A stretch of 64,000 nucleotides of DNA from an uncultured Erysipelotrichaceae bacterium (GTDB lineage: Bacteria > Bacillota_I > Bacilli_A > RFN20 > CAG-826): positions 7,323 to 71,322 of the forward strand of contig CAMVEL010000007.1 of the NCBI GenBank assembly GCA_947166565.1, written 5' to 3'. The position numbers were made by a program, and so were the translations under genes. A model generated the notes under the pieces. It saw only the letters and a program-made list of their open reading frames with translations, did no database searches and had not been told where the DNA came from. Positions 2,578-2,692 of this stretch are shown here, one piece after another. The stretch's first letter is position 1, and each line of letters opens with the position of its first letter.

Positions 2578-2692
2578 AAACAAAACCACCGCACAGGGGA
2601 CAATGGTTTAAGGCTGCTTGGTTCCCCACCTGACCTGGTTCGTCACTATCTCCTCGCGATGGCGGAGAGATTTTACCATATAGAACCAATTA
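2578..2692 (-). ncRNA. ffs: Small 4.5S-type signal recognition particle RNA (ffs/scr). Boundaries are approximate.
   Basis: The minus strand reads GAACCAGGUCAGGUGGGGAACCAAGCAGCC. This matches the universally conserved SRP domain IV CCAGGUCAGGUCCGGAAGGAAGCAGCC. The GGAA tetraloop is retained and there is a compensatory CC/GG to GG/CC swap of the closing pairs. A U-run (UUUUGUUUU) ends it just before the tadA ATG. Confidence 0.6.

Follow-up and report, generated by a model that had tools for sequence, protein, structure and literature searches.

Is the DNA immediately upstream of tadA in this contig the beginning of a protein, or does it carry a gene of its own? In a list of longest open reading frames (ORFs), tadA forms the 3' part of an uninterrupted ORF of 189 aa on the minus strand (2120..2689 (-)), which begins at a TTG codon and reaches its first in-frame Met at residue 39. 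An earlier note had taken the resulting 38-aa N-terminal extension for an over-extension hiding an unannotated SRP RNA gene, and the ORF is indeed built as it described. This proposal was followed up in the whole stretch of DNA that was analyzed (64,000 nucleotides, hereafter "the window"). In our reading, a small (4.5S-type) SRP RNA gene (ffs) almost certainly lies at 2663..~2577 (-), with a predicted length of ~79-87 nt and its own extended -10 promoter; the features concerned are collected in Table 1.

Table 1. Features assigned to the tadA upstream region, in window coordinates.
Feature	Position	Strand	Description
Promoter, extended -10 (candidate)	2670..2699	-	ATCACA, 18 nt, TGgTAAAAT; -10 hexamer 2675..2670, TG 2678..2677 (promoter scan)
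SRP RNA body, 79-nt extended hairpin	2585..2663	-	G1 = 2663, U79 = 2585; first and last paired bases
Domain IV core (Ffh M-domain binding region by homology)	2612..2641	-	GAACCAGGUCAGG-UGG-GGAA-CCA-AGCAGCC; read directly, aligned to Rfam consensus and E. coli ffs
GGAA tetraloop	2625..2622	-	Inside the domain IV core
UGUGC motif, 3' strand	2591..2595	-	Aligns with E. coli U82-C86; T82, G83, G85 and C86 columns invariant
U-rich tail UUUGUUUU	2577..2584	-	Directly after the terminal helix; likely 3' end / intrinsic termination tract
Spurious tadA 5' extension, TTG 2689..2687	2567..2689	-	Overlaps the RNA and its -10 box
tadA (probable tRNA adenosine-34 deaminase), 148 aa	2120..2566	-	Conserved start ATG 2566..2564

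Covariance models and the domain IV core

The earlier note had named two Rfam covariance models as the way to decide whether an SRP RNA is present and of which type. When the whole window was searched with cmscan (Rfam 15), the small bacterial family (RF00169, Bacteria_small_SRP) matched at 2580..2665 (-) with 51.8 bits, above its gathering score of 40, and with E = 2.2e-8 as computed for 64 kb x 4227 families. The alignment spans the full model (positions 1-97) and is not truncated; six non-canonical pairs are marked, and 12 model positions of the terminal helix are deleted, so that the window RNA is shorter than the family consensus. This is the sole SRP match within the 64 kb of genome covered by the search, a second copy elsewhere being possible. 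Two further models reported in the intergenic region (2400..2950, E<=10) are at chance level, namely BTnc005 (19.8 bits vs. a gathering score of 174.8) and drz-agam-1 (14.7 vs. 37). Another part of the window holds a fluoride riboswitch (RF01734, 53498..53571 (+), 37.5 bits, gathering score 34), directly upstream of and overlapping the TTG start of a 414-aa ORF (53569..54813 (+)); this ORF weakly matches models of K+/H+ antiporters (CPA1-like) and may encode a fluoride-responsive transporter.

The match to the small family could also be read as a fragment or degenerate form of the long (6S, Alu-domain) SRP RNA, with the remainder in the AT-rich segment 2664..2801 or elsewhere. The long 6S type is found in "many gram-positive bacteria", and simple traits do not predict whether an Alu domain is present (PMC4231752); one other model of the SRP clan, moreover, gave a lower-scoring match overlapping that of RF00169, which was removed by clan competition. 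Beyond this overlap, however, the long-form family (RF01854, Bacteria_large_SRP) produced no separate match, either at gathering score in the 64-kb window or at E<=10 in 2400..2950, yet the same model reached 161.8 bits on an Oscillospiraceae MAG (L073), which indicates that it finds its targets.

The core sequence likewise speaks for an SRP RNA. Direct reading of the minus strand gives the 30-mer GAACCAGGUCAGGUGGGGAACCAAGCAGCC at 2641..2612 (-), in which the loop nucleotides ACCAGGUCAGG and AGCAGCC flank a short helix with a GNRA (GGAA) tetraloop. Against the annotated ffs of E. coli K-12 (NC_000913.3 476448-476561), 24 of the 28 domain IV positions are identical, in keeping with the near-exact match announced by the earlier note, and the four differences are the two compensatory pair swaps beside the tetraloop that it had also pointed out: the E. 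coli core reads ACCAGGUCAGGU[CC]GGAA[GG]AAGCAGCC, whereas its window equivalent reads ...[GG]GGAA[CC]... (in full, ACCAGGUCAGGUCCGGAAGGAAGCAGCC in E. coli and ACCAGGUCAGGUGGGGAACCAAGCAGCC in the window). This GG/CC swap is a common variant. A scan of genome contigs with the 24-nt domain IV variant listed at least 120 genomes that have it; Burkholderiales make up most of them, and Lentisphaeria, Akkermansia, Faecalibacterium and archaeal MAGs are also represented. The same 24-mer was considered as a lineage marker and set aside as unspecific, since among the matches listed only one (L046) comes from a true relative of the window organism.

Fold, promoter and ends of the RNA

The minimum-free-energy (MFE) fold of the RNA is a single hairpin capped by GGAA (-32.3 kcal/mol). 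With a modest folding z-score of -1.62 and 11 of 200 shuffled sequences folding at least equally well, thermodynamics alone would not prove this structure. Related sequences were gathered by the domain IV scan (L046), through TadA homologues and by a pattern scan (20 metagenome loci), resulting in 27 related loci from uncultured gut and rumen Bacilli (Erysipelotrichaceae-like), and all the relatives tested match RF00169 (48-56 bits in L046 and L122-L132). Twenty distinct sequences from these loci form the covariation set. Over the 26 pairs of the window MFE structure, standard pairs fill 92.5% of the cells, in comparison with 36-48% in controls with the 3' partners displaced by 1-3 columns; both sides have changed at nine pairs (39 cells), and the covariation score is reached by none of 500 shuffles. 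As an example, 5 of the 20 sequences have C-G in place of U36-A45, the closing pair of the tetraloop helix. The same outer helix and domain IV helices were also obtained, independently, with RNAalifold. The pattern used for the metagenome loci fixed columns 1-10 and most of 29-52, so that invariance there is partly due to ascertainment, and the informative variation of the alignment is that of columns 11-22 and 57-75. With this limit, covariation in the 20 related sequences supports the single-hairpin fold. A local alternative hairpin proposed by a terminator scan (2609..2583) was rejected in favor of the covarying full-length one.

Upstream of the hairpin, the -10 box (TAnAAT-type) ends exactly 6 nt before G1 (2663), its first paired base, in the window and in every relative. 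Transcription probably starts at about G2663, on the first base of the hairpin or one or two bases away from it, which predicts an RNA without a 5' leader. At the other end, all 27 related loci have a U-rich tract after the helix, as the Rfam consensus likewise ends in a U-run, and termination would take place in the U-tract 2584..2577, which comes after a GC-rich segment. Promoter and U-tract together are consistent with expression as a small RNA.

The same geometry bears on the long form. The 5' and 3' ends of the RNA pair with each other and close the hairpin, the -10 box leaves only the above-mentioned 6 nt before the first paired base, and the sequence upstream of that box is not conserved between relatives. 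In two of them (L126 and L127), about 30-40 nt separate the end of the upstream gene from the -10 box. Between the flanking genes of L126, a "Bacilli bacterium" MAG (GCA_024687185.1), there are only 125 nt, enough for the promoter and a short RNA but not for a longer one. The distance of about 225 nt between the neighboring genes, from which the earlier note had argued for the short 4.5S type, is 226 nt when counted from the stop codon (2804..2802) of the upstream ORF (2802..4067) to the ATG at 2575. A remnant of a long SRP RNA is thus very improbable, and the short type agrees with the covariance models and with the covarying hairpin.

Besides the tetraloop, the hairpin carries the UGUGC motif near its open end, 28 nt from the tetraloop in the window and 27 nt in E. 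coli. By analogy with E. coli, this motif would be the distal GTPase-activating site, its G83 being presumably the inserted base that activates GTP hydrolysis. The compact RNA of ~80 nt thus appears to keep both functional ends, the tetraloop and the distal motif.

On the other hand, the hairpin could mainly be a cis-acting leader or terminator-attenuator for tadA, with its likeness to SRP RNA being secondary. Indeed, in each of the 23 loci examined, 8-24 nt lie between the hairpin and the tadA start, without a recognizable Shine-Dalgarno sequence, and a stable stem followed by a U-tract resembles an intrinsic terminator. Nonetheless, a simple terminator needs neither the domain IV invariants nor the GGAA tetraloop nor the distal motif, all of which are kept here at the correct spacing, and other SRP RNA candidates are absent from the 64-kb window. 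To our knowledge, every bacterium needs an SRP RNA. Furthermore, any cis effect on tadA would add to the SRP RNA role rather than replace it. As the main function of the hairpin, cis regulation of tadA is most unlikely, and an SRP RNA gene is the reading kept in what follows.

The start of tadA and its junction with the RNA gene

If the RNA gene is where it is proposed to be, tadA has to begin downstream of it. The first in-frame ATG is found at 2575..2573, and the second, at 2566..2564, lies 18 nt after the helix. Among the matches listed, the ten closest TadA homologues (147-149 aa) all begin M-x-x-x-E-A-M, which corresponds to the second ATG of the window (M4), and none of the best 120 homologues listed needs the 38-aa extension. 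The match to the NCBIfam TadA profile begins with profile position 10 on ORF residue 47, and residue 8 of the solved S. aureus TadA (PDB 2B3J, E 2.3e-38) aligns with ORF residue 45; PDB 7CPH also matches the window TadA (E 3e-37). Homologues, profile and the 2B3J structure together place the protein start at about ORF residue 39-42. Regarding its identity, the zinc motifs HAE and PCPMC of a CDA-fold deaminase are present; with the NCBIfam equivalog NF008113, the protein reaches 109.6 bits against a cutoff of 150 and thus falls short of strict TadA equivalog naming.

The DNA upstream of this start was compared in the relatives. In four loci whose TadA is 95% identical (L122-125), the spacer is 1 nt shorter, which puts the equivalent of ATG 2575 and everything upstream of it out of frame, and in L046 the DNA equivalent to the extension lies in a different reading frame. 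In the related contigs, the gene calls already take the conserved Met as the first residue of TadA and keep clear of the RNA interval. That the interval encodes a real 38-aa extension of TadA from TTG 2689, for which the uninterrupted frame from 2689 to 2120 would speak, is effectively refuted, given the homologues that do without it, the profile and 2B3J alignments that begin at ORF residues 38-47, the frame shifts in the relatives, substitutions that preserve RNA base pairs instead of codons, and the -10 box of the RNA lying inside the supposed coding region. Judged from these sequence comparisons, the TTG extension is an artefact of the longest-ORF rule, which reads through the RNA gene, as the earlier note had suspected. 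The best start for tadA is 2566 (148 aa), and 2575 remains usable in the window strain. In this sense, the U-run that had been described as abutting the tadA start codon does abut the first in-frame ATG at 2575, and the conserved start is the ATG at 2566.

The ORFs of gyrA (9315..12044 (-)) and gyrB (12066..14174 (-)) also start ~60 and ~45 codons upstream, respectively, of their profile starts. Over-extended starts, as these two show, are a general property of the ORF list and not specific to tadA.

The short junction between the two genes is a conserved feature in its own right. The spacers are U/A-rich, and among the 23 loci no Shine-Dalgarno sequence better than 2-3 of 5 positions was found in them, except that, where the spacer is short, the RNA helix itself supplies a GGUGG. 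The lack of a Shine-Dalgarno sequence and the start so close to the hairpin would imply that tadA is made by read-through or as a leaderless mRNA. A -10-like hexamer is located 6-7 nt before the tadA ATG in 9 of the 23 loci by a strict rule, and four more have TTTAAT; the candidate of the window is TGtTTTAAT at 2582..2574, 7 nt before ATG 2566. In U/A-rich spacers of related sequences, such hexamers are suggestive only, being compatible with a leaderless mRNA, with chance, or with read-through from the ffs promoter. We therefore put forward only tentatively, as somewhat less probable than its opposite, that the Erysipelotrichaceae-like clade expresses ffs and tadA as one conserved unit. In the read-through variant, transcription would pass the U-tract, the SRP RNA would be the 5' part of the tadA mRNA and would be cut out of it. 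In the leaderless variant, the -10 of a tadA promoter would lie in the U/A-rich spacer, and its upstream half would overlap the 3' strand of the SRP RNA gene.

Relatives, known SRP RNAs and proposed role

The 27 related loci share a module of promoter, RNA, U-tract and tadA, which can be written as a TAnAAT-type -10 box (often with an upstream TG), 6 nt, a 79-nt body of the form GCCAUCGCGA ... GCG(G/A)UGGU, a U-rich tract and tadA. In L046, an Erysipelotrichaceae bacterium, the RNA interval is 91% identical to that of the window, in comparison with ~73% for the flanking serS and gyrA DNA. As exact sequences, neither the 151-aa nor the 189-aa version of the window TadA had a match, and serS matched only a 2-kb ENA contig; the lineage was placed by L046 and L126. 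The gene order of the window is gyrA, glycosyltransferase, serS, an acyl-CoA dehydratase pair, ffs, tadA and a MacB-like ABC transporter. The dehydratase pair (2802..7009 (-)) consists of a 981-aa double BcrAD/BadFG acyl-CoA dehydratase activase fused to DUF2229 and a 421-aa DUF2229 partner. The window and most relatives have it between serS and ffs, but it is absent in L046, where serS abuts ffs, and gives way to other genes in L128; it is thus a variable insertion beside the conserved ffs-tadA module.

The window also spans the replication origin (16810..20829), with dnaA, dnaN, recF, gyrB and gyrA leftward and rpmH, rnpA, yidC, jag and mnmE rightward. Five one-mismatch DnaA boxes at 18235..18442 are suggestive, and the AT skew changes sign at ~18 kb; over the whole window, the count of DnaA boxes is not above chance (17 vs. 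12.6 +/- 3.8). The yidC product (19117..20829 (+), 570 aa) is covered by the insertase profile only at residues ~300-560, its N-terminal region of ~300 aa having no profile match. Its best models belong to the long PRK02201-type set, which we take to be mollicute-type and which would fit a lineage related to Mollicutes.

Among known systems, the window RNA shares its plan with the E. coli 4.5S RNA (ffs, RF00169): both are a single extended hairpin with identical domain IV motifs, a GNRA tetraloop, UGUGC and a U-run after the helix. The E. coli body is longer (114 vs. 79 nt); in the window, the helix beyond the distal site has ~6 bp. The location of the gene differs as well, directly upstream of tadA in the window and between ybaZ and ybaA in E. 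coli. The E. coli 4.5S RNA is matured from a precursor by RNase P; unlike that precursor, the window RNA is predicted from its promoter geometry to have no 5' leader. With the B. subtilis scRNA (scr, RF01854), the window RNA shares the S-domain core and an origin-proximal neighborhood (dnaA-dnaN-recF-gyrB-gyrA...serS...tadA), but it is without the Alu domain (helices 2-4). The gene order in B. subtilis is, we assume, serS...tadA-scr, with tadA preceding scr, whereas ffs precedes tadA in the window. SRP RNAs of Mollicutes are similarly minimal, and the window lineage is close to Mollicutes; the 4.5S-like RNAs of Mycoplasma have ~77-80 nt and comprise only helix 8 and a short helix 5. The Erysipelotrichaceae-like Bacilli are the free-living or gut sister of the Mollicutes. 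The likeness in very short size is, as it stands, a lead.

The short form had been called worth noting in view of the long Alu-domain form of many Bacilli and Clostridia, and this part of the earlier note did not hold. The short form is present in every one of the 27 relatives found and is thus what should be expected in the window lineage. Clostridia are mixed: three Faecalibacterium loci (L085, L087 and L103) match RF00169 (~60 bits) and the Oscillospiraceae MAG mentioned above (L073) matches RF01854, and these four share the same GG/CC domain IV variant. Among the loci compared here, the distribution of small and large SRP RNA is, thus, patchy within Firmicutes.

By homology with the E. coli 4.5S RNA, the domain IV loops of the window RNA would bind the M domain of Ffh, and the GGAA tetraloop would recruit the receptor FtsY. 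The Ffh-FtsY GTPase dimer would subsequently relocate to the distal site (UGUGC, close to the 5'/3' end); GTP hydrolysis would be triggered there, and the ribosome-nascent chain passed to SecYEG. How the tetraloop and the distal site act has been described, including the relocation of the Ffh-FtsY NG dimer from the former to the latter, where an RNA base activates GTP hydrolysis (PMC5454536). With the Alu domain absent, the particle would have no elongation-arrest module.

An ffs gene is a long-known housekeeping RNA gene, detectable by any Rfam-based or standard annotation pipeline, and the present one adds nothing new to SRP biology. Its value lies in annotation quality, as a clean example of how the longest-ORF rule swallows a housekeeping RNA gene and gives the neighboring protein a false N-terminus; the annotation would be corrected by placing ffs at 2663..~2577 (-) and tadA at 2566..2120 (-). 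Regarding the organism, an uncultured gut and rumen Bacilli lineage appears to use a very compact SRP RNA of ~80 nt. The ffs-tadA junction, being tight, conserved and devoid of a Shine-Dalgarno sequence, is well suited to weighing read-through against leaderless expression, and, if the two genes do form one expression unit, the output of a tRNA-editing enzyme would be physically tied to the SRP RNA gene.
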